DNA from: a virus
Taxonomy: Duplodnaviria > Caudoviricetes
IMG/VR virus record: IMGVR_UViG_3300037313_000574
Coordinates: 1-64,000 of that record
Strand: one strand, 5' to 3'
DNA: 64,000 nucleotides
Under the pieces are notes generated by a model. The model searched no databases. It saw only the letters and a list, made by a program, of their open reading frames with translations, and had not been told where the DNA came from. Made by a program: the position numbers and the translations under genes. Positions 27,632 through 64,000 of this stretch are shown piece after piece. The number at the start of each line of letters is the position of its first letter. Positions within the stretch are counted from its first letter, which is position 1.

Positions 27632-27656
27632 AAGCTCGCTTAGGCGGGCTTTTTTT
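27632..27656 (+). terminator. intrinsic terminator after terL
   Basis: AAGCTCGC-TTAG-GCGGGCTT followed by a T-run. Confidence 0.65.
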
Positions 27657-30032
27657 ATGAGCGAAACATCGATGACCAACGCACCAGACGACGATAGCCA
27701 GCTGAGTGCAATGGCACATGCCATGCTCACCGCCAAGGCTGAAGCCGCCCGCAAGGACGCCGAGCGCGAATACGCGCAGGCTTCTGCCGAGGTCATGCGC
27801 GCCGACGAGGAAGGTGCCGAGCCCGCATTTGCCACCCTGGCCGGGCTGGGCTCGATCTTCCTGAGTGAATTCGCGCAGGCCGAGTCTGATCGCCGCTCGA
27901 CTGAACTGCGCTGGCTGAAGGATTTGCGCCAGTATCGCGGCCAGTACGACGAAGAAGTCGAAGCGCTGATGGACAAGAATCGGTCTAAGGCATTCGTGCG
28001 TAAGACCCGCGTGAAGGTAAAAACGGTCGACTCGCGCGTGTTCGACCTGCTGTTCCCGGCCAATTCCGACCGCAACTGGGCACTGGAAGCAACGCCGGTG
28101 CCGACCGTGGCGCCGGAAATCAAGGACAAGCTCAAGCGCGACCTGACTGCCGCCTTGCAGCGCGCGCCGGAAGAAAACGAGATCCAGCAGGCCGTCAAGC
28201 ATCTGGTCGACACTGCCGCCAAGGGTATGGCCAAGGCGATCGATGACCAGTTGACGGAATCCCGCTACAAGAAGGCCGCGCGCCAGGTGATGCACTCCGG
28301 TCACCTGTACGGCACCGGCATCCTGAAAGCGCCGCTGATCGAGCGGAAGATTCGTACCCGCTTTGTCAATGAAGATGGCAAGTGGGTGATGAAAACGGAA
28401 TCCTACGTGGTGCCGTTTGTCGATTTCGTGCCGATCTGGCGCTTTTTCCCGGATATGTCGGCGACCGAGCTGGAGAATTGCCGCTACGTGTACGAGCGCC
28501 ATGTGATGAGCAAGTCGGCCGTGCTGGCACTGGCTGAGCGCAAGAGCTTCGACACGCAGAAGTTGCGTGATTACGTGACCTCGCACCCGAACGGTGCCAG
28601 AACGCGCAAGCCCTACGACGATGAAATCCGCCAGGTGGGCGACCGCACCACCGCGCACAATGACGACGGCCAGTACGAGATCCTGGAGCGCTGGGGCTGG
28701 GTCGATGCGGCGCAGTTGCACCAGTGCGGCGTGACCGTGCCGGAAAACCGCATGCACGAGACGTTTTTCGCCAACGTGTGGCTGCTGCCATCGGGCGAAA
28801 TCGTCAAGGCCGCGCTGCAGCCGATCAATGGCGTGACCTGGCCGTATCACCTGTATTACTTCGACAAGGACGAAACCAGCATTTTCGGTGAAGGCTTGGC
28901 AACGATCATGCGCGACGACCAGACCATGCTCAACGCCGGCACTCGCATGATCCTCGATAACGCTGCCATCACCGCTGGGCCGCAGTTCGAGGTCAACATG
29001 GACCTGATGTCGCCCACCGAGAAGGCGGATGCGATGTTCCCGTTCAAAATTTGGGGGCGCAACGGCCGGAATCCGGAATCGCCCGCTGTCCGCGTGCTCA
29101 ACATCCCCGGCAATCTGGAAGATCTGCTTCCGATCATTTCCATGTTCGAGGCGAACGCCGACGAAGTGACGGCCGTGCCGCGCTTCATGTCGGGCGAGAA
29201 CGCCACCCAAGGCGCTGCCGGTACCGCATCGGGCTTGTCCATGCTTATGGGCAACACGTCGATCGTCATGAAAGACCTGATCGCCGGCTACGACGAGGGC
29301 ATTACAGCGCCTTTCATCAACGCGCTGTATCGCTGGAACATGCAGTTCAATCCAGACAACGCGGTCAAGGGCGATTTCAACGTCAAGGCCAGCGGCACCG
29401 CGTCGCTGGTGGCGAAGGAAATCCGCGCCCAGCAGCTGGATAACTTTGCCGCGCAGACCAGCAACCCGATGGATGCGCCATTCATCAAGCGCGAAAAGCT
29501 CTTGCGCCAGCGCGCCGAAGCGCACGACCTGGTGGATGTGGTGAAGACCGAAGAGGAAGTATTGGCCGAGCAAAGCAACGACTTGGCCAAGAAGCAGCAG
29601 GAGCTGGCGCAGCAGCAGCAGGAGCTGACCTTGAAGCTGCAAATGGCCACGCTCGACAAGCTGACGGCCGAGGTGCAGAAGGTGCTGGCCGAGGCGCGAC
29701 TGAAAACGGCCGATGCCGTGGCCAAGAACGTGGGCTCGGTCTACGCGGCGACACAGGCGGGCGGCGTGGCGGCAACCAATCCCGCCATTGCACCGGCGAC
29801 CGACGAGATTCTGCGTTCCGCGGGCTTCGAGTCTTCCGGTGCGCCGGTCGGTATGCCCCAGGCACCGCAGGGCACGCTGCCTGAACAAGCTGGCGCGGCG
29901 AACGACTTGCCGATGCCGCAGGAGGCCGATCCGCAAGCGCCGGGAGCAGGTCATCCTGCGCCCGTCCCGCCGATGCAAGGACCGGGGCAAGGACTGCGCG
30001 CCGGTATTGAGACAACGAGGATTGAGCAATGA
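27657..30032 (+). CDS. portal protein
   Basis: 791 aa after terL; RWLKDLRQYRGQY, FGEGLATIMRDDQ, TASGLSML; coiled-coil/Pro-rich C-terminal tail. Confidence 0.9.
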   Translation: MSETSMTNAPDDDSQLSAMAHAMLTAKAEAARKDAEREYAQASAEVMRADEEGAEPAFATLAGLGSIFLSEFAQAESDRRSTELRWLKDLRQYRGQYDEEVEALMDKNRSKAFVRKTRVKVKTVDSRVFDLLFPANSDRNWALEATPVPTVAPEIKDKLKRDLTAALQRAPEENEIQQAVKHLVDTAAKGMAKAIDDQLTESRYKKAARQVMHSGHLYGTGILKAPLIERKIRTRFVNEDGKWVMKTESYVVPFVDFVPIWRFFPDMSATELENCRYVYERHVMSKSAVLALAERKSFDTQKLRDYVTSHPNGARTRKPYDDEIRQVGDRTTAHNDDGQYEILERWGWVDAAQLHQCGVTVPENRMHETFFANVWLLPSGEIVKAALQPINGVTWPYHLYYFDKDETSIFGEGLATIMRDDQTMLNAGTRMILDNAAITAGPQFEVNMDLMSPTEKADAMFPFKIWGRNGRNPESPAVRVLNIPGNLEDLLPIISMFEANADEVTAVPRFMSGENATQGAAGTASGLSMLMGNTSIVMKDLIAGYDEGITAPFINALYRWNMQFNPDNAVKGDFNVKASGTASLVAKEIRAQQLDNFAAQTSNPMDAPFIKREKLLRQRAEAHDLVDVVKTEEEVLAEQSNDLAKKQQELAQQQQELTLKLQMATLDKLTAEVQKVLAEARLKTADAVAKNVGSVYAATQAGGVAATNPAIAPATDEILRSAGFESSGAPVGMPQAPQGTLPEQAGAANDLPMPQEADPQAPGAGHPAPVPPMQGPGQGLRAGIETTRIEQ

Positions 30033-30289: not shown

Positions 30290-30922
30290 ATGAACACAGT
30301 TATCTTGAAAAACGGCCGCAAGGCATATCAAGTAACGCGCATAAGGATATTTGATTCCCCGGTGCAGAGCGTGTTCGGGTCGCCTGTGGCGGCGTGCGCA
30401 TACACCGACTTGGGCGAGATTCCAATCCCAGCAGGAGCGTTACAGCCGCAATTGGGCGATTACTACCAGCCGTCAGAGCGCGCCGGCGAAATGGGAATGT
30501 TCATGACTGCAGGCGAGGTGGCTTTGGACTATGCGGAGCGGGCATTGTCCATGTCAGAGCGGTTTGCAGCCGCTGCCGCTGATTATGCTGCATTCATGGA
30601 TGAGCAAGCCAAGATCCATGCGGCGGGCTGCGCGTCGCACACCATGGACTTCGGCGATGCGCTCAAGGCTTTGAAAAATGGCAAGCGCATCGCGCGCGCC
30701 GGCTGGAACGGCAAAGGCATGTGGCTATGTCTCGGCCAAGGCCATGCTGGGCTGGAAGCCGAGAAGTTTTGGAACCCGCACACCCGCGCCTTCGCTGAAC
30801 AGAACGGCGGCACCGCGCCGGTCCTGCCCTACATCATCATGAAAACCGCTGCCGGCGAAATTCTCATGGGCTGGCTCGCAAGCCAAACCGACATGCTGGC
30901 CGAAGACTGGCAAATCCTGTAA
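30290..30922 (+). CDS. uncharacterised N-domain fused to DUF2829/Tad2-like sponge domain
   Basis: C-term MDFGDALKALKNGKRIARAGWNGKGMW...PYIIMKT...WLASQTDMLAEDWQI is the DUF2829 (Tad2-like) signature. Confidence 0.85.
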   Translation: MNTVILKNGRKAYQVTRIRIFDSPVQSVFGSPVAACAYTDLGEIPIPAGALQPQLGDYYQPSERAGEMGMFMTAGEVALDYAERALSMSERFAAAAADYAAFMDEQAKIHAAGCASHTMDFGDALKALKNGKRIARAGWNGKGMWLCLGQGHAGLEAEKFWNPHTRAFAEQNGGTAPVLPYIIMKTAAGEILMGWLASQTDMLAEDWQIL

Positions 30923-30954
30923 CGCCGCCCTACTTTTGAAACCTGGAGAAAAAC

Positions 30955-31422
30955 ATGACACATGAATACATCGGTACCAAGATTGTCACGGCTTGGCCGC
31001 AGGAGAGCGCCGCCAAGGCTCGTGTTTGCGGAGTGGACTGCCATCCTGGCGCCGGATCCTGCAACGGCTATTGCACCGGTAAAGCCGATCGGCCGCCAGC
31101 CCTGCCAGCCCAACCAGGCTATGCCGTGAAATATGCGGACGGCTACACCAGCTGGAGCCCGAAAGACGTTTTCGAGGCTGCATACATCGACATCGGCCAT
31201 GTATCGCACCTGCCACCGCACCAGCAGCGCCTGATTGGCGAAAGGGCTGAACTGGGCGACAAGCTGGGCAAGCTGCGCGCCTTCATGGCTGGCGAAGCAT
31301 TCCTCGCCTTGCCGGAACCGGAGCGCTTTCGTATGGCCGAGCAGGCCGTCGTCATGGATCAGTATCACAAGATCCTTGCCGCCCGCATCGCTGCCTTTGT
31401 CGGCGACCAGCCCACCACGTAA
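30955..31422 (+). CDS. two-domain candidate anti-defence protein (YIGTK..SWSPKDVFE domain + crAss001_48-like helical domain)
   Basis: YIGTKIVTAWP...GYAVKYADGYTSWSPKDVFEAAY, then LPPHQQRLIGERAELGDKLGKLRAF...MDQYHKILAARIAAF. Confidence 0.8.
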   Translation: MTHEYIGTKIVTAWPQESAAKARVCGVDCHPGAGSCNGYCTGKADRPPALPAQPGYAVKYADGYTSWSPKDVFEAAYIDIGHVSHLPPHQQRLIGERAELGDKLGKLRAFMAGEAFLALPEPERFRMAEQAVVMDQYHKILAARIAAFVGDQPTT

Positions 31423-31456
31423 CGATTCTTTGACCCCTGCGCAAGCAGGACAGCCA

Positions 31457-31484
31457 AAGCCACTCCGCAAGGGTGGCTTTTTTT
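31457..31484 (+). terminator. intrinsic terminator
   Basis: AAGCCACT-CCGCAAG-GGTGGCTT followed by a T-run. Confidence 0.8.
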
Positions 31485-31509
31485 ATAAGCCAACCACCTG
31501 GAGGAACAC

Positions 31510-32430
31510 ATGGCGAGCACTACCGAAGACGGCAACAAAAAAGCAGCCGAGGATTTTGAATCCGGCTTCAACGAAGAAATCACCAAGCCGGAGCAGACCG
31601 AGGACGAGGCTTTTGGCCTGACCCCGGACGAAGCGCCGGGCACTGAATCGACGGAAGGCAGCGCGCCGGCCGTGGCGATCGTCGTCACAGGCGACAAGGA
31701 TGCGCCGCACGGCGAAATGCCGACCGGCGGCGACGAAACCGCTGCTGCAACGAACGAAGAAGCGCCTGCCGCCACCGAAGCCGAACCTGCCCTGGATATC
31801 GAGAAGGAAAAGCAACGCCTGAAGTCGTGGGAAGGCCGCTTGCGCGCCAAGGAAGCTGAGTTGGCCGCGCGCCAGGCTGAAGAAGCCACCGAAACGCCGG
31901 CCGCAGAAGCCGCTGAACAGGCTGCCGGCGAAGTGCCTGACGAAGACGACGCCGATATCAAGGCGCTGTCGGAAGACTTCGGCCCGGAATTCGTCACCCT
32001 GCTCACTTCCCTGATCGCCAAGATCGCGCGCAAGACCGCCGCGGAAACCGCCAGCGAGCATACCGCGCCGTTCCGCAAGGATATCGACGATGTGATTGCT
32101 GAAATGACCAACGAAAAGCAGCGCTTGCACTTCGAGAAGATTTCGGACGCCTTCCCCGACTTCATGGAAATCGCCGAATCGGATGCCTTCAAGGCATGGG
32201 GCGATGCCATGGCGCCGGAAGACAAGGCGGAATTCGATCGCATCGTCGCCTCCGGCAGCGCCCGCGAAATCATCGGGCTGCTCAAGCGATACAAGGCTGC
32301 CAGCACCACCGATTCGGGCATTGACGAGGACGCGCTGGACAACGCTGAAGGCGTGCGCTCGACCGGCTTGAAGCTGCCCGAGTCCCCATCCAGCAAGGAT
32401 GACTTCGCCTCGGCGTGGAACGAACACTGA
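31510..32430 (+). CDS. capsid scaffolding protein
   Basis: Acidic, low-complexity protein between portal and MCP; RLKSWEGR; GGAGG RBS. Confidence 0.75.
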   Translation: MASTTEDGNKKAAEDFESGFNEEITKPEQTEDEAFGLTPDEAPGTESTEGSAPAVAIVVTGDKDAPHGEMPTGGDETAAATNEEAPAATEAEPALDIEKEKQRLKSWEGRLRAKEAELAARQAEEATETPAAEAAEQAAGEVPDEDDADIKALSEDFGPEFVTLLTSLIAKIARKTAAETASEHTAPFRKDIDDVIAEMTNEKQRLHFEKISDAFPDFMEIAESDAFKAWGDAMAPEDKAEFDRIVASGSAREIIGLLKRYKAASTTDSGIDEDALDNAEGVRSTGLKLPESPSSKDDFASAWNEH

Positions 32431-32703: not shown

Positions 32704-33681
32704 ATGTCTGTCTATGGCGATATCTCCCCCCGTACCGCGGCTTATGCTGAAAAAGAACTGCTCAAGCGCGGCCTACCCTACCTGATCCTGGAAAAGTTCG
32801 GCCAGTCCAAACCGCTGCCGGGCAATTCCAGCAAGGTCATGAAGTTCCGCCGCTACAACGCGCTGGACGCCACCCCGACCGCGCTGACCGAAGGCGTGAC
32901 CCCGAGCGCGCAGACCCTGACTGTGACCGACGTAACGGCCACCCTGACCCAGTACGGCAGCCGCATCCAGATCACCGACGTCATCATCGACACCCATGAA
33001 GACCCGGTACTGAATGAATCGATCACCCTGCTTGGCGAACAAGCCGCGCAGATGATCGAGAAGATGCGCTTTGGCGTGCTGAAGGCCGGTACCAACGTCC
33101 TGTATGGCAACGGCGCCGCACGCACCGATGTCAATACCGCGCTGACCCTGGCCAACCAGCGCAAGGCAACCCGCTCGCTGAAGCGCCAGAACGCCCGCCC
33201 CATCACCACCATTGTCAAGTCGACGCCGGCATACGGCACCGAGGCGGTCGCCCCCGGCTTCATCGGCCTGGCCCATCCGGACCTGGAAAGCGACATCCGC
33301 AGCCTGGCTGGCTTCGTGCCGGCCGAGAAATACGGTTCGATGACGCCGTTCGAGAACGAAATCGGCAAGGTGGAAGACGTGCGTTACCTGACGTCGACCA
33401 TCTTTGCGCCGTTCGCCGACGCCGGCGGCGCCAAGGGCACGATGATCTCGACCACCGGCACCAACGCCGACGTCTACCCGGTCCTGTACCTGGGCGCCAA
33501 TGCTTACGGCATCGTCGCCTTGAAGGGTATGTACGCCTGCACCCCGATGGTCGTCAATCCGAAGCCTTCGGACAGCGATCCGCTGGGCCAGCGCGGCCAC
33601 TGCGCATGGAAGTCCATGCAAACCGCCGTCATCCTGAACGACGCCTTCATGGCTCGCCTGGAAGTCGCTGCTACCGCCTAA
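32704..33681 (+). CDS. major capsid protein, N4-gp56 family
   Basis: YGDISPRTAAYAEKELL, KFRRY, TATLTQYG, ENEIGKVEDVRY, SDSDPLGQRG..WK. Confidence 0.95.
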   Translation: MSVYGDISPRTAAYAEKELLKRGLPYLILEKFGQSKPLPGNSSKVMKFRRYNALDATPTALTEGVTPSAQTLTVTDVTATLTQYGSRIQITDVIIDTHEDPVLNESITLLGEQAAQMIEKMRFGVLKAGTNVLYGNGAARTDVNTALTLANQRKATRSLKRQNARPITTIVKSTPAYGTEAVAPGFIGLAHPDLESDIRSLAGFVPAEKYGSMTPFENEIGKVEDVRYLTSTIFAPFADAGGAKGTMISTTGTNADVYPVLYLGANAYGIVALKGMYACTPMVVNPKPSDSDPLGQRGHCAWKSMQTAVILNDAFMARLEVAATA

Positions 33682-52420: not shown

Positions 52421-55400
52421 ATGGCAACAAAGAAGCCCCAGCCGCAATACCTGCAAAACGAAGAAGCGCAGCCGAATTGGGATGCGGGCGAAGATTTCCT
52501 AAAAAATCTTGAAGCCAATGGCAATCAGGACAAGCCGCAGGAAGGCGCGGGCATCTTGCGCACTGCGGGCGACATGGCCATCAAGGGCGCGCAGGGCGTG
52601 GTCGGGCTGGGCCAGTCAGCAGTGGGCCTGGGAAGCCTGGCGACGGGGGGGCTGGTTGGCGAAGGCATGCGCGCTATTGGCTATGATCCCAAGCGCACGA
52701 ACGACATGCTGGGCGAATATCTCAGCGATGCGCAAAAGGCTTCCGATGCTGCAGTACAAAAGGAAGATACGTTCCTCGGCGCGGTCGGCGCTGCCGTAGC
52801 CAATCCGCGCGCCATAGTCGGCAGCGTCGTGCAATCCCTGCCGGCCATGATCGCCGGCATGGGCGCGGCCGGCGCGGCAGCACGCGCGATTGGTGCCAGG
52901 GCGGCGGCGGCTTATGGTGGCATGGGCACGGAAGCCGGCGCAGTGGCGGCCAAGGCAGCGATCGAGCAAGCCAGCGGCAAACTGCTGGCGACCAGTGCAG
53001 GTATCGAGGGCGCGCAGACAGCCGGGCAGATTGCCGATGATGCGCAGGCAGCCGGACGCGCCTATAGCGATTATGCGCCGGCGGCGCTGGCGGCCGGCGC
53101 CGGCACGGCTGCAATCGGCTTCGGGGCGGGCAAGCTGGTGGGCGACGCCGCAACGGATATCGCCACCGGCGCGCATACGCTCAAGGGCAGCAAACTTGCC
53201 AAAATCGGCAAGGAGTTTCTGAGCGAGGGCGCGCTGGAGGAAATGCCGCAGTCGGCGCAGGAACAATACTTTACCAATATCGCCAATGGCGAAGCGGACC
53301 CGATGAAGGGCGTGGCCAATGCTGCCGGCATGGGCTTGGTCACTGGCGGCGTCATGGGCGCTGGCATGGGCGCGCTGCATGGGCACCCGCAACCGGAATC
53401 GCAGCCGGTGCCGCTGGCCGATACTGGCCCCCTCTCCCGCGCCGCCAATGCCGTCGCTGCCGCACAGGCAGCCGCGCAAGCCGCGCGCACTGGCCCCATC
53501 GATTACCAGCGCTATGACCCGCCCATGCTGCAGCCGCAGCAGCAATCACAGGAACTGGCATTACAAACGCCGGCCGAGAATGGCATTGATTTCGAGCCGC
53601 AGCCGGACGCCCGCGGCGCGCTGGCCCGCCAGCCGATCCCGGAACTACGCGAAGCCACGATTACCACGGAAGCGCCGGCCGGCTATGACAATGGCGTCGA
53701 TTTCCTGTCGTCCAACAGCGAAGAACCGGCACTGCCGCGCGACGCCGCCAGCGTCGAGGCGCAGACCTTCAAGAGCAAGGGCTTGGCGAAAATCGCCATG
53801 AACCAGAGCAAAACGACCGAATCGCATGAAGTCGTGCCGGCCGATGACGGCAATGGTTTCGTCGTGCGGCCGAAATTCGCCGCCGCGCCGGACCAGGGCA
53901 TTGCTGGCGCCGGTACCAAGATCCTGCGCGATGGCTTGGCCGCCATTTCGACGCTGTACCAGGAAGGTGCGGCCGACAAACAGCACGCCGACGAGGCGCA
54001 AGCCATCCTGGCAGGGCTGGATGACAATTCGATCAGCGTCAACGAGGCGCAAGCGCGTTTCGATGCCATTTACGACGAGATCAATACGCCGGCGGCAGTG
54101 CCGGGCGAAGACGACTTGCTCACGGCAACACCAGACGAAACGCCGGCACTAACCGAGGCGACGCCAGACGCGCCCAGCGTTGACGAAATAGATCTCGAAG
54201 AGACGCGCATCGGCCTGGAGGTTGACCAGGCGGATCTGGAGGCGCTGGGCGAAGCACTTGCCAACGACATGGACCCGGCCACCGGCAAGAAAATCGCTTC
54301 GCAAGGCATCCGCGACCAGTACCAAAGCGAGTATGAAAACCTGCAAGCCTCCGTTGCCGCCGCAACCGAGTACCTGCGCCAGAAGAATGCGTTGATTGCA
54401 CCGCCACCGGCCCCGCGTGCGGATGCCGCGCCTGCCACGATCGACCCGATTGCCGAGGCTGCCAACGAAGCCGCCACCTCCCCGCTGAATGATCTCCCCG
54501 AGCCGACGCAGGCACAGAAGGAGGCCGGCAACTACAAGAAGGCCCATGTGCGCGTGCATGGCCTGGATATCACCATTGAAAACCCGGTCGGCTCCTTCCG
54601 CCGCGGTGTCGACAAGGACGGCACGCCGTGGGAAACCGAGATGCAGCACCACTATGGCTACATCAAGGGCACGGTGGGGATGGACAAGGACCATATCGAT
54701 GTTTTCATTGGCCCGAACCATGAAAGCAACAAGGTTTTTATCGTCGACCAGATCGACCCGAGCACCGGCAAGCCGGATGAACACAAGGTCATGCTCGGTT
54801 TTGACAGCATGGAGCAGGCGCGCGCCGCCTACCAGGCAAATTACGCCGATGACTGGACCGGCGGCAAGGCCATCACTGAAACCACCGTGCAGGGCTTCAA
54901 GGATTGGCTGGAGAACGGCAATACCAAGAAGCCGTTTGCCCAGCAGGCCAAGAAATACCCGCCAGCAGCACAAGTAGAACCTCAGGAGATTACCACCAAT
55001 GCTACCCAACCTGAACAAGTGGCTGAAAAAGCGCAAGAAGCGGCAGGAACGCAAGCTGCGCAGGAAGATGCGCCGGTAGCAGCCGTACCGGCAGCCGAAC
55101 CAGTCCTGTCCAAGCAAGACTTGAACAAGTTGACAGTCAAGGACATGACGGATGCCCAGTTGCTGCAGGCCCGCGACGTGTTCGACGGCGGCCCGCGCGC
55201 GCCGAAGATCGAGAAGGAAATCAAGAAGCGCGGGCTGGATGCCGCCCCTGAGGCCGCGCCAGCAGCACCGGCACAAGAAGGGAACGCGAATAATCCTGGC
55301 ACTGGCAATGCCAAAGCCGCGCCGGGGGAAAAGCCAACCATCGAAACGGCGATGCAAGAAGGTAGCGAATTGCGCGCCGTGATGGAAAAGGATACCTATG

Positions 55401-58400
55401 CCTTGCCGCTGATTATTCGGCACCCGCTTGAGGCTGACGCGCAAGGCGTCATCATTGGCGCAAAAACCAGTACCGATCGCGTCGTAGAAGAAGGCGGCGA
55501 TGAATACAAGGAGCTATATGACGGCTTCAACAATACCCGCGATTATTTGCGCAATACATTTGGCGACACGGTAACGCTGTACCGCGCCGACGCCACCCAG
55601 GATGAGAAGCGGGTAGAGAACAAGCCGACCCTGTATTTCGGAACCAAGAAGGTTGCATCCAACTTTGAGAGCAAGGGCCGTAAGGTCAAGGCTTACGATA
55701 TAAAAGTGGATGACATCATTGCGGCGCCGCTGTTCCACAATGGCTATTTTGATTTTGTGGTGCGCAATCCTGAGTATGTCGAAAAAGGCCAGGATAAAGG
55801 CCCGCAGCGCGCCACCACAATGGACGAAGCCAAGGCCGCCGTGCGCGCCTACTTCGATTGGTACTTGCGCGAAAGCCCCAACGCCAAGGAGCCGATGCCT
55901 GGCATCCATGGCGGGAATGCCTTCACGATGGACGCCGGCGGCGCACCCTTCACCAAGGCTGGGGAAATCCTGGTCAATGGTCCGACTGGCGATTTGAAGT
56001 TCAAGTATGCCGATTTGTGGAAGGAGGCCAAGGAGGCCGCCAAGCCGGCGCCCCGTGGCGTACTGGTCAAGCCGGCCGAGAGCAAAGGTGAGACTTTGCA
56101 GGAACCGGCACCGGCGAAGAAGAAGCCGACCGCCAAGCAAAAGCAAGCCGCCGCAGAAGAAGCCATGCGCAAGATGCTGGGCGCTGAAGTTGGTGACACG
56201 ATCACCATGACTTTCAAAGGCAGTTTCGGCTACCTGACCAGCGGCAAGCCTATGGTCATTGAAAGCATTAATAGCGACAAGAGCATTTATTTCCGTGATC
56301 CAGTCAACGGTTCTGGCACGTTTGAATCGCTGTCGTCGATGCAGGCCGCAGCCAGGAATTCATTCGTCAAATTGACTTGGGAAGTTCAGCCAAAGGCCGA
56401 GTCGAAGCTGGCACCGGCTGAATCAGCGCCGGCACCAACAGCCGCGCCCGTCGACACCCGTCCCACCCTGGCCGACGAAGCCGCCAAGGCTAAGGCGCAA
56501 GCCGACCTGATGGACGGCCTTGCCGATCTGGCCAATATCTTCGGCAAGAATGCCAAGCTCAACATCACCCCCGAGCAAGAGCAAAAGCTCTTGCCGGTCT
56601 TGACCAAAGTGATGGATGCCGCCTTCCGACTGGGCTATTATCAATTTAAGGATGCCGCGCGCTTCGTGCTGACCACGATCCGCGAGAAAATCGGCGCCGA
56701 CGTGGCCGAGCAAATCACCCTGGACCATGTACAGGGTGCCTATATCGGCATGGCCGGCAAGTACAAGGACCAAGGCGCGTCGACCAAGAAGGAGGTCATT
56801 GGCGTGGAAAGCCTGGTCGAATTGGCCGATGTTGCTGAAAATCAAGATGACAATTCCGCCGAACCGTATAAACTGGAAGAAACAACCCCGCAAGAGGAAG
56901 CCGATAATGATTCCACCGCTTCAACCGATTCGCCTCCGGTCGATTTCGACTTGGTTGCGGAACAACGCCCCGAAGGCAGCGCTGCACCCGTCCGAGGAGC
57001 TAAACCGCCGCGCGCTCGATCTGGACGAGCAAATGATCGAAGCGTTCGAGGACCGCGAGGACGCGCTGAAAAATCAAATGATGGCCAACTCGACTTGGGG
57101 GACGGAGCAGGGAATAACCCAGTTTCCGCTGGACAGAATGACGCTGTGGCAGGAAGTGTGCAGCGAGTTTCTGCCGACTTCCGCCCTGCAATCGGAGGAC
57201 TGACGCGCGAAGGTTCCTGGTTCGATACGGCTGGACGCAATATCGACCTGATTGAATTGGCGATCACCATTGAAAAAGAAGGTCGCGCCGCCACCCCGGA
57301 AGAACAAGCCAAGCTGTCGAAATACGTAGGTTTTGGCGCCTCCGCCATCCGTAACCCGCTATTTCCTATCCCGCCGTCTTACGCCAAGCAGCAAGACCCG
57401 AACCGCCTGATCTGGCCGCAGTATGTCGAACCGCGCTGGAAGCCATTGGCCGAACGGCTGGATGCCTTGCCGCGCGAGTGGCAGAAATCCATCCTGCAAT
57501 CGTCCCAGTACGCCCATTACACCAGTGAAGGCATGATCCGCTCGATTTGGTCGGCCATGCAGCGCCTTGGCTTCACCGGCGGCAAGATCATGGAACCGGG
57601 CATGGGGATTGGCTCGTTCTCGATGCTGATGCCGGACGCTGTGCGACTGGGCTCGACCTATACCGGGATTGAGTTCGATGGCCCGACCGCCTTGATTGCT
57701 AAGTTGCTCTCCCCGGACCAGAACATGATCCATGGCGACTTCATCAAGCGCAAATTGCCGCGCGATTTCTTTGATGCTGCCATCGGCAACCCGCCGTTCT
57801 CGCAAACCAAAGTCTTGGCGGACCCGGATTACGAAAAGCATGGCTTCATGCTGCATGATTTCTTCTTTGCTAAATCCATCGATCGCGTGCGCCCTGGCGG
57901 CCTGCTGGCCTTTGTGACCAGCAAGGGAACGATGGACAAGCAAGCCGACAAGGCCCGCAAGTACCTGGCCGAGCGCGCCGACCTGATCGGCGCCATCCGC
58001 CTGCCATCGACCGCCTTTGAAGATAATGCCGGTACCAGCGTGGTTACGGATGTGATTTTCTTGCGCAAGCGCGCACCGGGCGCCGCGCCGGCGGGCGCAG
58101 CCTGGCAGAACGTGGCGGCCGTGGAAACCAAGGATGGCCCGGCCGTCATCAATGAGTATTTCGCCGCGCACCCCGAGATGGTGCTGGGCCAAAACCGGAT
58201 TTCCGGCAACGTCGATGACGAGGGCCGCCGCATCAATAGCAACGGCATGGGCGGCGAGAAATATACCGTTGTGTCGTATGACAAGACGCCGGCCGAGCTG
58301 GAAGCCAAATTCGCCGCGGCGATCGAGCGCTTGCCGGAAAACGTCTATTCCGTCATGAATATGAGCCCTGAGGCCATCAAGGCGGAAACCGCCAAGGTGG

Positions 58401-61400
58401 ACTTTGACCCGCGTATCAAGCGCGATGGCGTGGTCTATGTGGGCGACGATGGCACGCTGATGCGCGTCGAGCATGGCGTCGGCAAGCCGCTGGGCGACTC
58501 CGTGAAATTCACGGAAAAAGACCACCAGTGGATGAAAAGCTATGTCGGCTTGCGCGACCTGGTGCAAGCCGCACGCGCGACGCAGGCGCAGGACGGCGAT
58601 TGGGAAAAGCCGCTCAAGGCACTCAACAAGGCTTACGACAAGTTCCGCAAGGAGCATGGTCCGATCAATGCCTTCCGCACGCAGGTCCGCAAATCCACCG
58701 ATGAAGATGGCAACCCGGTGGAAACTGAAATTCGCATCTTCACCAACCGGCGCCGCTTCCGCGAGGATTACGACGCTGCCATCGTGACCCAACTGGAAAC
58801 CATCAACGAAGCCGGCGAAGTCGTCAAGGCGCCGTTCCTGTTGGGCCGCACCATCGGCAAGCCCGTTACTCGCACCATCCAAAGCATTGGCGACGCCCTG
58901 GCTGTGTCGCTGGACGCACTGGGCAAGCTCAATCTTGCCGATGTGGCCAAGCGCATCAACCTGTCGGAAGAAGAAGCGATCGCCGCACTGGGCGACCAGG
59001 TATATAAAACTCCATCCGGGCAATGGCAATTGTCGGATGAATACCTGTCCGGCGATGTGGTCACGAAGCTGGAAGAAGCCGAGGAAGCCGCGCGCCTGGA
59101 CCCGAGCTTGAAGCGCAACGTCGAAGCCCTGAAGAAGGCCCAGCCGGAAAAGCTGGGGCCGTCGCAGATTTCCGTCAAGCTGGGCGCTTCCTGGATTCCG
59201 GCCGAGCATGTCAACGCCTTTGCCAAGGAAATCGAAGCAGGCGCCGTGACGTTCGACTCGAAAACGGAGACTTGGCAAGTAGCTGGCGGCAATGAGCGTT
59301 CCGGCCGCCGCGCTGGCGCCGAATACGGCACTGCCGCCCGCTCTCCTTCGGAATTGCTGGAGGCGGCCTTGAATAGCCGCAGTGTCAAGGTCACGACTAA
59401 AGACGCCGACAAGAAAACGGTCGTGGATACCGAAGCCACCACCGCCGCCAATGAAGCCTTAAAGAAGATCAAGGATAAGTTCAAGGGCTGGGTATGGACC
59501 GATTCGAGCCGCGCCGCCGAACTGGTGGAAAGCTACAACAAGCGTTACAACAATATCGCACCGCGCCTGTTTGATGGCTCGCACCTGACACTGCCTGGCG
59601 TGTCGCTGCGCTTCAAGCTCCACCCGCACCAGTTGCGCGCGATCTGGCGCGTCATCCAGACAGGCAACACTTATCTGGCGCATGCTGTCGGCGCCGGCAA
59701 GACGATTGAAATGATCGCCGCCGGCATGGAGCAAAAGCGCTTGGGACTGATCAAAAAGCCCATGTACGTGGTGCCGAACCACATGCTGGAGCAATTTTCC
59801 AACGAGTTCATGGAGCTCTACCCGCTGGCCAATATCATGGTGGCGGACGATGAAAACTTTTCGCCGGAGCGCCGCCGCGCCTTTATCGCCTCGGCTACGC
59901 TGAACAACCCGGACGCCATCATCATCACGCACGATGCCTTCCAGCGTATCGGCGTCAAGGAAGAATCGATCGCGCCGATCCGCGACGAGATCCTGTCCGA
60001 CCTGGAGATTGAGCTGGAAAGCATGGCCAAGGACTCGGGTGCCCGCGTGCGCCGGGGCCAGTTGGAGCAGCAAATCGAGGCCGTGACACAGCGTTTCGAC
60101 CGCATCATCGCGGCCGGCGGCAAGGATTCCACCATCAAGTTTGAGGATATCGGGGCCGACTTCATCTTTGCCGATGAGGCGCATGTATACCGCAAGCTGG
60201 ACTTCCATACCGCCCAGCAGATCAAGGGCATCGACCCGAACGGCTCCAAGCGGGCGCTCGATATGTACGTCAAGACCCGCTACCTGGAAAAGCAGCGGCC
60301 GGGCCGCTCGATGGGCTTTGCCTCGGGTACGCCCGTCACCAATACCATGGGCGAGTTGTACACCATCATGCGTTTCTTTGCCGCTGACGAGCTCGACCGC
60401 GCCGGTATTTCCAGCTTTGATGCCTGGGCGCGCATGTTTGGCGAAGTCGTGCCGGCACTGGAGCCAAACGCCGCCGGCAAGTACGAGATTGTCGAGCGCT
60501 TCGCCCGCTTCGATAACGTGCCGGAATTGATGAGCCGCGTGCGGCAATTCATGGATGTGCTGACCTCGGAACACTTGGGCGCACTGGTCAAGCGCCCGGA
60601 TCTGAAGGGCGGTAAGCCGAGCCTGAATATCGTGGCGCCGACTGCCGCGCTGGACGCCTACATGAAGGGCGAACTGGCACGCCGCATCGAGGCTTCCAAA
60701 AAGTGGAAGCCGAGTAAGGATGAACCGAGCAACCCGGACCCGATTGTGGCCATCATCACCGATGGGCGCTTTGCCGCGATCGATCCGCGCTTCTTTGGCG
60801 GTGACTTGGAAGAAGGCGACACGTCTATCATCCATGAAATGGCCGACAAGGTAGCGGCGGAATACCACGCCACGGCCGATAACGTCTATCTCGACAAGCA
60901 GCAGAAGCCGGAACCGATCAAGGGCGGCACTCAGATCGTATTCTATAACCTCGGCTTTGGCGCTGCCTCGCAAGCCAACCGGGGATTCAATGCCCGCGCC
61001 GCCTTCACCAAGCGATTAACCGATGGCGGCGTCAAGCGCAGCGAAATCGCCTGGTTTGACGATGCCAACACCGACGCCAAGAAGGAAGCAATCTTCAAGG
61101 CCATGCGCGCCGGCCAGATCCGCGTCTTGATTGGTTCGGCCAAGAAGATGGGCACCGGCGTCAACGTGCAAAAGCGCCTGACCAAGCTGCATTACCAAGA
61201 TCCGCCCTGGTTCCCGGCCGATGTGGAGCAGCCGCACGGCCGCATCATCCGACAGGGCAACCAAAATGGCGAAGTGGGAATCGACTGGTACACCACCAAG
61301 GGCACCTATCAATCAACCATGTGGCAGATGGTGGCGCGCAAGCAGCGCTTTATCGACCAGGCTTTCACCGGCGATAAGAACATGCGCTCGATGGATGACA

Positions 61401-64000
61401 TGGGCGAAGCCTCGCTATTCGAGCAAGCCGCCGCCGTGGCCTCGGGCGATCCGCGCGCCATCCAGCTGGCCGGCTTGAAACAGGATGTGGAGCGCTTCGA
61501 GCGCCTGCAAGCCGCGCACGCCAATGAGCAAATCGCCGTGCGCAGTGCCTTAAAGAGCGCCGAATGGCAAAAACAGGATACCACTTCTAACATTGCCGCC
61601 CTGACCAAAGCCTATCAAGCCATCGGCGAAAAGTATTTTGCCTTCACCGCCGGCACGGTCGACGGCCGCGCCTATGACAAGGTGGGCGAGTTTGGCCAAG
61701 CCTTGAAAGATGCATTCAACAAGATCGCCAAGGAAGCCAAGGAATTTGCGCCAGCCGGCAATGACCGCGAAATCGGCAAGATTGGCGACAAGATCACCAT
61801 TCGCATGGTCGGCACCTTGGACAGCAAGGAAAAGCCGACCGGCAAGTTCAAGATTTACCTGTCCGTGGGCGGTATGAACTTGGACAGCCTGGTCTACAGC
61901 GATGTGCTGGGCGAGGAAGTGGATGCCGTGGGCCTGGGCCGGCGCGTGGGCAACCAGTTGAATGGCATCGAGCCAGAATTGAACAAGTCCAAGCGCAGCC
62001 TGACGCAAGCCGAAACCGATATCGTGCGCCTGACCAAGAAGATGGGCGCGCCGTTCGAGTATCAGCAAGAAATGCTGGACAAGTATGGGGAATTGAAGCG
62101 CCTGGAAGAAGAATTGCGGCAAGAAGGCTTGGCCGCTGCCCAGCAAGCCGCCGCGCAGCCGGAAGCGCCCGCCGTTATCAATGCGGACGGTGCCGCGCCA
62201 GGCGAAGCGGCGCAGGATGGCGACGTGCTGGCCTATTCCCGCGGCCCCAGCCCCGCCGCCGGCATGACACTGGAAGCCGCGCAAGCCGAAGTGGACCGCC
62301 TGAAAGCCGGCTGGGAGAATGCCCCGCGCATTACGGTGGTAGAGTCGGTTTCCAGCTTGCGCACCCTTCTGGCAGACCCGAACATTAAGGCGGATGCGCG
62401 CGGCATCTACTTGGACGGCCGTATCTGGATTGTGGCCGAAAACAACGGCTCGCCGCTGGACATGCAGACGACGCTATTCCATGAAGTCCATGGTCACGCT
62501 GGCTTGAGCGGGCTGTTTGGTGACGACTTGCGCAACCAGTTAATTGCGCTGTCCATGAAAAACGAGAATATCCGCGCGGCGGCTGCCCAGTGGCGCGCGG
62601 CCAATCAGGATATCCGCGATAACCTCGACGATGCAGCCTGGCTGTCGCTCTCGATCGAGGAGGCGCTGGCGGACATGGCAGGCGAAGGCCGTCAGCTCAA
62701 TGGCTTTGCCAAGTTCATGAACGCGCTCCAGTCAGCCCTGCGTGCGATCGGCTTCACGGAATTTGCCAACTGGCTGGGGAAACGCACCGATGCCGAGGCG
62801 CTGGCGATGCTTGCCAATGCCCGCCAATTCATCGAGCGCGGCGACCAGGCGCATGTATTCAGTGCGCAGGAGGCGCAGGAGTATGCCAATCCCGCAGACA
62901 AGATCAACAGCGCTGCATTCCGCAAGTGGTTTGGCGACTCTAAGGTGGTGGATGCCGATGGCAAGCCGCTTGTTGTATATCACGGTACGACCAGAGATTT
63001 CTCGCAGTTCGACCCGGAACGCGCTGAAACCGACTTCGGCTCATTCTTCACTGATCAAGCTGATCACGCACAGGAGTACAGCCAAGGCAACGGCGGGAAC
63101 ATGATGCCAGTATATTTGAGCATCAAAAATCCGTATGAAGTGACGAGCAGCCAATGGGCGTTAGCAGAAGGGTTATCACCAGAGCAAGCGCGTGATGCCG
63201 GGTATGACGGGTACAAAATAACCAGTCTGAATGGTAGCGCAGAGACTACTTGGGTCGCTTTCAGGCCGGAGCAAATTAAATCCGCCATCAGTAACAACGG
63301 CGATTTTGATCCTGCCAACCAGGATATCCGCTATTCCACCATCGGCAGCAAGGGTGCAGGCGCACAAATGGCGCTGGATTTTGCCGCCAGCGACAACATC
63401 CTGGAAGAACTGTCGCGGCACGATGAACTGTTCCGGCTGCCGAAATCCAACAAGGATACCGTCGCCGGCATCGCTGCCGATAACGATACTGGCATCACCG
63501 TGCGGGAATTCTTCAATATTCCCGGCGAGACGCGCTACAACTTCACCACACCGGACGGACAAGTGGCGCGCATGACCGTGCGCAAGTTCAATCCGCGCGC
63601 CAATCAACTCTACAGCTTTGATCTGGTCGATGGCGAAATGGTTGGCCAGGTCGATGAGCGCCCCGGCCGCAATGCCGAGGAAGTCGAAGGCAAGGATGAC
63701 CTGTGGCTGGATGTTTCCGGACTCAAGCCGGGTTCAGGGTACGGCGCCAAAATCTACAACATCGCCGCCACCTACGCGCACAATACCGGCAAGGTATTCA
63801 TCGGCGACCCGGCCGGTCTGTCGGACGATGCGATGCGGCGCCGGCCGGAGCAAATGCTGTCGTCTGCCCTGAAGTTCGGCACTACCGAGCACTTGGCCCC
63901 GCACCCCTGGCAAGTCGCCGGCGATCCGAAGATTGGCGTTCCGCGCCTGGATTGGGTGTATGGTGACCACATCGGCAATATCCAAAAACTCATCAAGTTG
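52421..64000 (+). CDS. giant DarB-like polyvalent protein, >3860 aa, truncated by window end
   Basis: ATG 52421 with AAGGA RBS; same frame verified at 54527, 56903, 59681, 62480 and 63962; the ORF track lists no terminated ORF in this frame. PPase-like DKDHIDVF, MTase EPGMGIG/GNPPF, SNF2 HAVGAGKT/DEAH, HEVHGH peptidase, ART YHGT. Confidence 0.92.
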   Translation, partial: MATKKPQPQYLQNEEAQPNWDAGEDFLKNLEANGNQDKPQEGAGILRTAGDMAIKGAQGVVGLGQSAVGLGSLATGGLVGEGMRAIGYDPKRTNDMLGEYLSDAQKASDAAVQKEDTFLGAVGAAVANPRAIVGSVVQSLPAMIAGMGAAGAAARAIGARAAAAYGGMGTEAGAVAAKAAIEQASGKLLATSAGIEGAQTAGQIADDAQAAGRAYSDYAPAALAAGAGTAAIGFGAGKLVGDAATDIATGAHTLKGSKLAKIGKEFLSEGALEEMPQSAQEQYFTNIANGEADPMKGVANAAGMGLVTGGVMGAGMGALHGHPQPESQPVPLADTGPLSRAANAVAAAQAAAQAARTGPIDYQRYDPPMLQPQQQSQELALQTPAENGIDFEPQPDARGALARQPIPELREATITTEAPAGYDNGVDFLSSNSEEPALPRDAASVEAQTFKSKGLAKIAMNQSKTTESHEVVPADDGNGFVVRPKFAAAPDQGIAGAGTKILRDGLAAISTLYQEGAADKQHADEAQAILAGLDDNSISVNEAQARFDAIYDEINTPAAVPGEDDLLTATPDETPALTEATPDAPSVDEIDLEETRIGLEVDQADLEALGEALANDMDPATGKKIASQGIRDQYQSEYENLQASVAAATEYLRQKNALIAPPPAPRADAAPATIDPIAEAANEAATSPLNDLPEPTQAQKEAGNYKKAHVRVHGLDITIENPVGSFRRGVDKDGTPWETEMQHHYGYIKGTVGMDKDHIDVFIGPNHESNKVFIVDQIDPSTGKPDEHKVMLGFDSMEQARAAYQANYADDWTGGKAITETTVQGFKDWLENGNTKKPFAQQAKKYPPAAQVEPQEITTNATQPEQVAEKAQEAAGTQAAQEDAPVAAVPAAEPVLSKQDLNKLTVKDMTDAQLLQARDVFDGGPRAPKIEKEIKKRGLDAAPEAAPAAPAQEGNANNPGTGNAKAAPGEKPTIETAMQEGSELRAVMEKDTYALPLIIRHPLEADAQGVIIGAKTSTDRVVEEGGDEYKELYDGFNNTRDYLRNTFGDTVTLYRADATQDEKRVENKPTLYFGTKKVASNFESKGRKVKAYDIKVDDIIAAPLFHNGYFDFVVRNPEYVEKGQDKGPQRATTMDEAKAAVRAYFDWYLRESPNAKEPMPGIHGGNAFTMDAGGAPFTKAGEILVNGPTGDLKFKYADLWKEAKEAAKPAPRGVLVKPAESKGETLQEPAPAKKKPTAKQKQAAAEEAMRKMLGAEVGDTITMTFKGSFGYLTSGKPMVIESINSDKSIYFRDPVNGSGTFESLSSMQAAARNSFVKLTWEVQPKAESKLAPAESAPAPTAAPVDTRPTLADEAAKAKAQADLMDGLADLANIFGKNAKLNITPEQEQKLLPVLTKVMDAAFRLGYYQFKDAARFVLTTIREKIGADVAEQITLDHVQGAYIGMAGKYKDQGASTKKEVIGVESLVELADVAENQDDNSAEPYKLEETTPQEEADNDSTASTDSPPVDFDLVAEQRPEGSAAPVRGAKPPRARSGRANDRSVRGPRGRAEKSNDGQLDLGDGAGNNPVSAGQNDAVAGSVQRVSADFRPAIGGLTREGSWFDTAGRNIDLIELAITIEKEGRAATPEEQAKLSKYVGFGASAIRNPLFPIPPSYAKQQDPNRLIWPQYVEPRWKPLAERLDALPREWQKSILQSSQYAHYTSEGMIRSIWSAMQRLGFTGGKIMEPGMGIGSFSMLMPDAVRLGSTYTGIEFDGPTALIAKLLSPDQNMIHGDFIKRKLPRDFFDAAIGNPPFSQTKVLADPDYEKHGFMLHDFFFAKSIDRVRPGGLLAFVTSKGTMDKQADKARKYLAERADLIGAIRLPSTAFEDNAGTSVVTDVIFLRKRAPGAAPAGAAWQNVAAVETKDGPAVINEYFAAHPEMVLGQNRISGNVDDEGRRINSNGMGGEKYTVVSYDKTPAELEAKFAAAIERLPENVYSVMNMSPEAIKAETAKVDFDPRIKRDGVVYVGDDGTLMRVEHGVGKPLGDSVKFTEKDHQWMKSYVGLRDLVQAARATQAQDGDWEKPLKALNKAYDKFRKEHGPINAFRTQVRKSTDEDGNPVETEIRIFTNRRRFREDYDAAIVTQLETINEAGEVVKAPFLLGRTIGKPVTRTIQSIGDALAVSLDALGKLNLADVAKRINLSEEEAIAALGDQVYKTPSGQWQLSDEYLSGDVVTKLEEAEEAARLDPSLKRNVEALKKAQPEKLGPSQISVKLGASWIPAEHVNAFAKEIEAGAVTFDSKTETWQVAGGNERSGRRAGAEYGTAARSPSELLEAALNSRSVKVTTKDADKKTVVDTEATTAANEALKKIKDKFKGWVWTDSSRAAELVESYNKRYNNIAPRLFDGSHLTLPGVSLRFKLHPHQLRAIWRVIQTGNTYLAHAVGAGKTIEMIAAGMEQKRLGLIKKPMYVVPNHMLEQFSNEFMELYPLANIMVADDENFSPERRRAFIASATLNNPDAIIITHDAFQRIGVKEESIAPIRDEILSDLEIELESMAKDSGARVRRGQLEQQIEAVTQRFDRIIAAGGKDSTIKFEDIGADFIFADEAHVYRKLDFHTAQQIKGIDPNGSKRALDMYVKTRYLEKQRPGRSMGFASGTPVTNTMGELYTIMRFFAADELDRAGISSFDAWARMFGEVVPALEPNAAGKYEIVERFARFDNVPELMSRVRQFMDVLTSEHLGALVKRPDLKGGKPSLNIVAPTAALDAYMKGELARRIEASKKWKPSKDEPSNPDPIVAIITDGRFAAIDPRFFGGDLEEGDTSIIHEMADKVAAEYHATADNVYLDKQQKPEPIKGGTQIVFYNLGFGAASQANRGFNARAAFTKRLTDGGVKRSEIAWFDDANTDAKKEAIFKAMRAGQIRVLIGSAKKMGTGVNVQKRLTKLHYQDPPWFPADVEQPHGRIIRQGNQNGEVGIDWYTTKGTYQSTMWQMVARKQRFIDQAFTGDKNMRSMDDMGEASLFEQAAAVASGDPRAIQLAGLKQDVERFERLQAAHANEQIAVRSALKSAEWQKQDTTSNIAALTKAYQAIGEKYFAFTAGTVDGRAYDKVGEFGQALKDAFNKIAKEAKEFAPAGNDREIGKIGDKITIRMVGTLDSKEKPTGKFKIYLSVGGMNLDSLVYSDVLGEEVDAVGLGRRVGNQLNGIEPELNKSKRSLTQAETDIVRLTKKMGAPFEYQQEMLDKYGELKRLEEELRQEGLAAAQQAAAQPEAPAVINADGAAPGEAAQDGDVLAYSRGPSPAAGMTLEAAQAEVDRLKAGWENAPRITVVESVSSLRTLLADPNIKADARGIYLDGRIWIVAENNGSPLDMQTTLFHEVHGHAGLSGLFGDDLRNQLIALSMKNENIRAAAAQWRAANQDIRDNLDDAAWLSLSIEEALADMAGEGRQLNGFAKFMNALQSALRAIGFTEFANWLGKRTDAEALAMLANARQFIERGDQAHVFSAQEAQEYANPADKINSAAFRKWFGDSKVVDADGKPLVVYHGTTRDFSQFDPERAETDFGSFFTDQADHAQEYSQGNGGNMMPVYLSIKNPYEVTSSQWALAEGLSPEQARDAGYDGYKITSLNGSAETTWVAFRPEQIKSAISNNGDFDPANQDIRYSTIGSKGAGAQMALDFAASDNILEELSRHDELFRLPKSNKDTVAGIAADNDTGITVREFFNIPGETRYNFTTPDGQVARMTVRKFNPRANQLYSFDLVDGEMVGQVDERPGRNAEEVEGKDDLWLDVSGLKPGSGYGAKIYNIAATYAHNTGKVFIGDPAGLSDDAMRRRPEQMLSSALKFGTTEHLAPHPWQVAGDPKIGVPRLDWVYGDHIGNIQKLIKL
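56907..57203 (+). CDS. 98-aa overprinted ORF in the +1 frame inside the giant gene
   Basis: GAGGA RBS then ATG; helical protein-like sequence; the overlapping main frame becomes Arg/Gly-rich only here. Confidence 0.6.
   Translation: MIPPLQPIRLRSISTWLRNNAPKAALHPSEELNRRALDLDEQMIEAFEDREDALKNQMMANSTWGTEQGITQFPLDRMTLWQEVCSEFLPTSALQSED

Follow-up and report, generated by a model that had tools for sequence, protein, structure and literature searches.

A predicted Sequestin-family anti-Thoeris sponge with a widespread, unnamed N-terminal module and a four-cysteine insert, encoded in the head operon of a Caudoviricetes virus

The open reading frame at positions 30955–31422 (+ strand) of the 64,000-nucleotide stretch analysed here (the window), part of a virus record of 72,290 bp rated complete, encodes a protein of 155 residues in which a small N-terminal module is followed by a Sequestin domain. 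We consider it probable that this gene is a Sequestin-family counter-defence sponge against the Thoeris signal 3'cADPR, with a conserved front module and with Tad2 as its partner in a cassette. The Sequestin family was already known; what is new is the front module, which is widespread, unnamed and, in this lineage, carries a four-cysteine (Cys4) insert. We regard the reading frame as a real conserved gene because 667 homologous clusters were recovered at E ≤ 1e-3. The family phrog_32732 matched the whole protein (6e-36), and the AlphaFold2 (AF2) model reached a mean pLDDT of 92. A Shine–Dalgarno sequence read from the DNA, GGAG (30945–30948, + strand), lies 6 nt before the ATG. The motifs quoted in the original prediction were all present in the translation, namely YIGTK (aa 5–9), CGVDCHPGAGSCNGYC (aa 25–40), GYAVKYADGYTSWSPKDVFEAAY (aa 55–77), PHQQR (aa 88–92) and LAARIAAF (aa 141–148). 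The front module, the Sequestin domain and the Tad2 domain each occur a single time in the record.

By sequence and structural model, the C-terminal half is clearly assigned to the Sequestin family, because of its PF21825 score, its predicted contact residues and its helical-hairpin model. The domain (aa 87–146; 31213–31392, + strand) matched PF21825 at 62.4 bits, well above the cut-off of 24.8, covering profile positions 1–60 of 61; in a genome-wide search the score was 64.5 bits. This agrees with the resemblance to crAss001_48 that had been suggested for this domain, since the family formerly labelled 'crAss001_48 related protein' is the one now named Sequestin (Tal et al., bioRxiv 10.1101/2025.07.12.664507). 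AF2 predicted a two-helix hairpin (helices 88–111 and 121–150, pLDDT 97–99), which superposed on the 63-residue crAss001 protein in BFVD with a TM score of 0.97 normalised by target and an rmsd of 0.4, and also on many phage Sequestins of 60–80 residues (TM 0.8–0.97 by target for crAss001 and other members of 60–70 residues).

Sequestin was described as the family of unknown function that most often accompanies Tad2 and Acb4 in fusion proteins; 10 of the 13 members tested inhibited type I Thoeris, and a purified Sequestin bound and depleted 3'cADPR and then released it (Tal et al., bioRxiv 10.1101/2025.07.12.664507). In the same work, modelling and mutagenesis identified the ligand contacts as R8/E12/Q47/R61 in SequestinA and R7/E11/Q45/R59 in SequestinB (bioRxiv 10.1101/2025.07.12.664507). 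In the protein studied here, R92, E96, Q130 and R144 show exactly the spacing of SequestinB (+4, +34, +14), a correspondence made by spacing and not by an alignment with SequestinA or SequestinB. Across 32 aligned homologues, Q130 and R144 were invariant and R92 and E96 were conserved in at least 90% of the sequences. The counterparts of these four residues in the gp59 protein from Pseudomonas phage vB_PaeP_C2-10_Ab09 are R89, E93, Q127 and R141, according to an ungapped pairwise alignment that is non-significant when taken alone (E = 1.7). Ab09 gp59 is an Acb4–Sequestin fusion with tight binding of gcADPR, and crystals of its Sequestin domain showed an antiparallel dimer (Fedorova et al., bioRxiv 10.64898/2026.06.04.730250).

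The protein therefore resembles SequestinA, SequestinB and T4 Y16O in its C-terminal 60 residues, in the predicted hairpin and in the four residues that contact 3'cADPR. Most Sequestins, however, stand alone with 60–80 residues, whereas this one has an N-terminal extension of 86 residues comprising the front module and its Cys4 insert. In size and layout it is closer to Ab09 gp59 and the YH6 fusion, in which a front domain of about 80 residues also precedes the Sequestin domain; gp59 is, in addition, a phage counter-defence gene located beside other anti-signalling genes, as the gene described here is predicted to be.

From these comparisons we propose that the hairpin of residues 87–146 would pair in antiparallel fashion with a second copy, and that this pairing may form two elongated pockets in which 3'cADPR (1''-3' gcADPR), the Thoeris signal made by TIR proteins, is bound and sequestered. 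R92, E96, Q130 and R144 would hold the ligand, so that the ThsA effector would never be switched on. Judged by its C-terminal half, the gene is credibly an ordinary Sequestin anti-Thoeris sponge, and both the activity and the ligand of this half are predicted on the basis of sequence. Nevertheless, 3 of the 13 Sequestins were inactive against the Thoeris system used, and therefore family membership guarantees neither activity nor ligand. The N-terminal module, which would sit as a highly conserved and rigidly linked β module in front of the hairpin, could also alter or even supplant the behaviour expected of the Sequestin half.

The front module spans aa 2–81 (30958–31197, + strand), has no family name and was matched by profile A3 at 4e-26. 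Its elements are β strands at residues 3–6, 10–19, 52–59, 65–69 and 78–81 and a helix at 70–76. The module was folded and searched alone, as the whole-protein fold searches were swamped by generic helical hairpins. When folded in isolation (pLDDT 87), it was modelled as a small barrel of five strands with a single short helix. The alignment behind profile A3 showed invariant residues at K9, A13, G55, Y60, G63, Y64, S66, W67, S68, P69, F73 and Y77. We found no Pfam family for this module and no sequence relative in the PDB (profiles A1 and A3 gave nothing meaningful), and Foldseek with the isolated module returned no significant match. With VIA-align, the best match was the DUF1653 structure 3be3 (Z = 5.8), followed by Tudor/SH3-like domains of Mfd, UvrD and CarD (Z = 4.8–5.3). 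These small barrels aligned over 47–57 residues with Z values of 4.8–5.8, show no sequence kinship with the module and have scores in the range expected by chance, so they justify no functional inference; since Z values below 6 are within the chance range for small barrels, the modelled fold may at best be called SH3/Tudor-like.

Two apparent relationships were discarded in the course of these searches. Weak Foldseek rows and a loose likeness of motifs had suggested that the module could be a cut-down Tad2, but the Foldseek matches to Tad2 structures had E values of about 1–5 and TM scores of about 0.3, and hhalign gave no support (probability 0.4% for profile A2 of the front module against the Tad2 domain of the window itself). 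In a PDB sequence search with the protein, the only matches, to polyubiquitin entries, were spurious, and arose from a chance match to PPxQQRLI repeated nine times, each with an i-Evalue of about 1e3. Residues 68–102 (SPKDVFEAAYIDIGHVSHLPPHQQRLIGERAELGD) match a ubiquitin segment by chance, which inflates the E-values against polyubiquitin chains.

The sponge papers that we consulted do not mention this module, yet it is abundant. Profile A3, which covers the module only and was built from 33 sequences cut from viral loci, searched 1.84 billion proteins and retrieved 5,740 cluster representatives (E ≤ 1e-3), of which 2,095 remained when the threshold was tightened to E ≤ 1e-10. Of the best 149 of the 5,740 representatives, Pfam models identified 41 with a Sequestin domain, 36 with Tad2 and 4 with Acb4; our own HMMs classified about 22 of these 149 as stand-alone modules (66–100 aa) and left many others with unassigned C-terminal parts. 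The architectures recovered with the official Pfam models were N-module–Acb4, N-module–Sequestin–Acb4, N-module–Sequestin–Tad2 and N-module–Tad2. Two scans of viral contigs revealed the module with Sequestin, Tad2, Sequestin–Tad2, Acb4 and Sequestin–Acb4, as well as in tandem and stand-alone forms. Phages place it N-terminal to no fewer than three sponge folds that are unrelated to one another (Sequestin, Tad2 and Acb4), and also encode it alone. The suggestion of the original prediction that the first domain is a common fusion partner of Tad2 finds support in phrog_872 and in the N-module–Tad2 architectures. The Tad2/DUF2829 (PF11195) fusions phrog_872 and P0120 carry the same kind of front module, with the Cys4 insert in P0120; in the window, by contrast, the module is attached to a Sequestin, and Tad2 is supplied by an adjoining gene with a different N-terminus.

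A module with 5,740 representatives, no Pfam entry, no solved structure and three unrelated sponge partners deserves attention, since it could reveal a new family of signal-binding domains or a widely used phage mechanism for adjusting how sponges assemble. Being unnamed, such a domain would escape the search by which the Sequestins were discovered, because that guilt-by-fusion search used Pfam families only.

Some minor observations emerged from the same survey. In a structure search of the ESM Atlas, one cluster paired the module with an Acb2/Tad1 hairpin, which we mention as a lead only. The protein cluster P0193 (352 aa) has the N-module–Tad2 architecture, but HNH_3 and AP2 domains divide its Tad2 match in two, which resembles an insertion of the homing-endonuclease type within a sponge gene.

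One possibility, to which we give tentative weight, is that the front module is itself a second, unrecognised ligand-binding sponge domain, not of the Acb4 type, and that the gene is a true dual sponge. Sequestin came to light because a domain of unknown function was joined to established sponges, and the same logic applies to this module, given its fusions to Sequestin, Tad2 and Acb4. In addition, we detected 16 stand-alone module genes (57–97 aa) with no Tad2, Sequestin or Acb4 gene within 1.6–3 kb. The idea that stand-alone modules are halves of split sponge genes was therefore rejected, as the module is not merely one half of a split sponge, and their isolation argues for an autonomous activity. 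The invariant aromatic residues together with Lys and Ser (K9, Y56, Y60, Y64, S66, W67, K70, F73 and Y77) would also suit base stacking and phosphate contacts. However, the core of the module is small, at about 48 residues, no pocket is predicted in it, a large share of the conserved aromatics may do no more than pack the interior of the barrel, and no similarity to known sponge or nucleotide-binding families was observed.

About equally plausible is that the module binds no signal and acts as an assembly or valency element, a 'dimerising head' that links or stabilises sponge oligomers. This would agree with its constant N-terminal location and very short linker (4–6 aa), and with the fact that its partner folds all act as oligomers, Tad2 and Acb4 as tetramers and Sequestin as a dimer or tetramer. 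Tandem copies also exist: P0122 (169 aa) and P0123 (166 aa) each contain two N-modules and no other recognised domain. On the other hand, a purely accessory role does not readily account for stand-alone modules lacking an adjoining sponge gene, and many Sequestin, Tad2 and Acb4 proteins function without it.

A role in docking appears less likely than either of these. Here the module would be a Tudor/SH3-like adaptor that brings the sponge to a protein of the host or the phage, such as the signal-producing enzyme, RNA polymerase or the procapsid. Its best structural matches are indeed protein-binding barrels (the RID of Mfd, Z = 5.3; the Tudor domain of UvrD/PcrA, 4.8–4.9; CarD, 4.8; and SH3 domains), weak matches to Tudor_5 and Ago_N_2 were obtained, and the position within head operons recurs. 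Nonetheless, every Z value is below 6, as unrelated small barrels also give, and most homologues are located outside head operons.

The original prediction had suggested that the first domain may be of the Acb4 type, and a divergent Acb4 domain (PF13876) would make the gene an Acb4–Sequestin fusion comparable to Ab09 gp59 or YH6, a common and characterised arrangement with a matching layout (a domain of about 80 residues and then PF21825); we consider this identity highly improbable, as it is contradicted by the PF13876 searches, the comparison with gp59 and the architectures in which both domains co-occur. PF13876 gave no match at E ≤ 10 on the N-terminal domain, the whole protein or the 72-kb genome, and the positive control, Ab09 gp59, scored 83.4 bits; no similarity was detected between the module and the PF13876 part of gp59; the front domain of gp59 is PF13876 and the one described here is an unrelated module. 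The module is also distinct from the Acb4 domain because it precedes true PF13876 domains in other viral contigs: L064 (module aa 42–88, PF13876 aa 96–168), L070 (module aa 7–53, PF13876 aa 66–140) and L022 (module, then PF21825 at aa 80–139 and PF13876 at aa 213–308). The model of the N-terminal domain has the order strand-strand-(insert)-strand-strand-short helix-strand, and this predicted order, with its single late helix, appears to differ from the α-β-β-β-α dsRBD-like fold of Acb4, with N-terminal helices, three strands and two C-terminal helices. Acb4 (PDB 9E4W) was absent from the match lists of Foldseek and VIA-align, although absence from a list is not proof.

The original prediction had gone further in proposing that the two genes carry four modules that neutralise nucleotide signals. 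The Tad2 and Sequestin domains do belong to validated sponge families, but neither the front module nor the N-terminus of the Tad2 gene has an assigned function, and in this respect the claim went too far. A bolder proposal, which we advance only tentatively, is that the YIGTK...DGYxSWSPKxxFExxY module represents a further, unrecognised family, with thousands of members, by which phages bind immune signals, or else potentiates sponges universally. If this is true, its Cys4 form would be a metal-stabilised variant, and the amount of sponge would be linked, through the recurrent insertion of such genes between portal or minor head genes and scaffold or capsid genes, to the late structural proteins by which Thoeris and CBASS are triggered.

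The Cys4 insert of about 33 residues lies in the β2–β3 loop of the module (aa 19–51; 31009–31107, + strand; alignments A1 and A3). Most homologues have 116 residues and a four-residue β2–β3 turn that lacks the insert. In distant relatives, unrelated segments of 15–25 residues occupy this loop, which indicates that insertions are tolerated at this point. The insert is borne by 35 of the 120 closest clusters, including that of the window protein; its length is fixed in 34 of them and the four cysteines are invariant in all 35, with the consensus (K/R)V.(V/I)CGxDC-x6-CN(G/S)YC.G. The putative metal site, C25-x3-C29-x6-C36-x3-C40, is contained in CGVDCHPGAGSCNGYC (31027–31074, + strand). Because of the fixed length and the invariant cysteines in a cytoplasmic protein, the variable loop of the module is probably a small metal-bound mini-domain in this case, most simply a structural zinc site; two disulfides or an Fe–S site would be alternatives.

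In P0120, the insert-bearing module is fused directly to Tad2. On a tree built from the remaining columns, the insert-bearing proteins clustered, requiring 16 changes as compared with 28 for shuffled labels, but a single clade of Cys4 proteins was rejected on this tree (p-AU = 0.003). This fits shuffling of the insert, or of the module bearing it, among backbones, or else repeated loss. In P0054, P0061 and P0085, about 60 residues with no Pfam family lie C-terminal to the Cys4 module and could be a further partner domain. Separately, in one large metagenome set, many N-module–Sequestin proteins have short Cys-rich tails (for example CECDCKSPC, ECGCTCGCNSAQSC, CDFCPSETTDC...HIC), found at L029:3995-4450, L031:3998-4576, L037:3986-4450, L039:3983-4498 and L052:2687-3163. 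These tails are a second, independent tie of cysteine clusters to N-module–Sequestin proteins.

The gene is preceded, at a distance of 32 nt, by its cassette partner (30290–30922, + strand), which encodes 210 residues and matched PF11195 at 90.7 bits. Its Tad2 domain (aa 119–210; 30644–30919) is genuine by sequence comparison, with matches to the solved SptTad2 (8wjd, 1.8e-18), HgmTad2/AcrIIA7 (8kbi, 3.9e-15) and SPO1 Tad2 (3e-12). The N-terminus of this protein (aa 1–118; 30290–30643) differs from the YIGTK module: about 72 N-terminal residues had no match in Pfam, PHROGs or the ESM Atlas, and residues 73–118 aligned with 9kzr, a long AcrIIA7 structure, in its N-terminal portion. Downstream, the cassette is closed by a terminator-like hairpin of 10 pairs followed by a run of seven T (31456–31487, hairpin 31456–31480, + strand). 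This hairpin ranked first among the terminator-like sites of the region (centroid −14.5 kcal/mol), and its energy is ordinary for its composition (z = −1.3). Another strong terminator-like hairpin with a T run was noted at 27632–27651, between the large terminase and portal genes, where it falls inside what otherwise resembles a single late operon.

Upstream of the cassette the order is large terminase, portal and an ORF of 81 residues. The portal gene (27657–30032, + strand; PF23899; phrog_332/1216), which forms the upstream border of the slot, encodes a protein with 23% identity to the portal of phage DES1 (E = 3e-47). At the downstream border there is a scaffold-like gene (31510–32430, + strand), so called for its position just before the capsid gene; it weakly resembles its positional equivalent in DES1 (E = 6e-4) and is followed by the major capsid gene (32704–33681). 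Taken together, the upstream Tad2 fusion gene, the separate terminator and the portal and scaffold flanks were as originally described. In DES1 and Rollin, the genes run from terminase and portal through a small ORF to scaffold and capsid, and sponge genes are absent from this series; for this reason the Tad2 gene, the 155-residue gene and the terminator can be considered a 1.2-kb insertion. The capsid proteins of DES1 and Rollin share 40–44% identity with that of the window. No DNA-level relative of the phage was found; within the 7.9-kb head region, only the two cassette genes had DNA-level matches in cultured phages. GC3 was 0.70 in the cassette genes, as compared with 0.74–0.83 in the flanking genes.

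The location in a head operon, as originally claimed for this anti-defence cassette, holds and is a recurrent arrangement. In L023, the order is terminase, portal, minor head/morphogenesis, the Cys4 homologue, scaffold and capsid. In L003, a stand-alone Acb4 gene (L003:3669-4447; PF13876, 52 bits) overlaps the start of a Cys4 N-module–Sequestin gene in a slot between the head-morphogenesis and scaffold genes, which parallels the Tad2 and Sequestin pair of the window. In L004 and L012, the homologue is flanked by a portal-proximal gene on one side and the capsid gene on the other. The head modules of these four loci belong to different PHROG families, and the slot recurs in unrelated phages. 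Across about 50 non-redundant loci, head genes were a minority of the neighbours, and lysis, methyltransferase and replication genes were also observed.

Because the terminator-closed cassette is inserted between portal and scaffold genes, both sponges would be produced together with the late structural proteins. A search for a promoter of the cassette found none, and late expression, or the action at packaging time that had been envisaged, is suggested by gene order only. The recurrence of the slot suggests that, in some phages, sponge output is coupled to those structural proteins by which signalling defences are triggered.

In this position the gene differs from Ab09 gp59, which is located in a replication-side hotspot of N4-like phages, whereas the phage described here is not N4-like and has the gene in its head operon. 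An N4-like assignment had been considered in view of a giant ORF and of the N4-like anti-signalling hotspots in the literature, but it was unsupported, as the capsid protein is closest to those of phages Y3, Rollin, StenR_269 and DES1 (40–46% identity). The giant ORF itself (52421–64000, + strand) exceeds 3,860 residues, is open at the 3' end of the window and encodes a giant protein of the virion type, alongside a capsid that is not N4-like.
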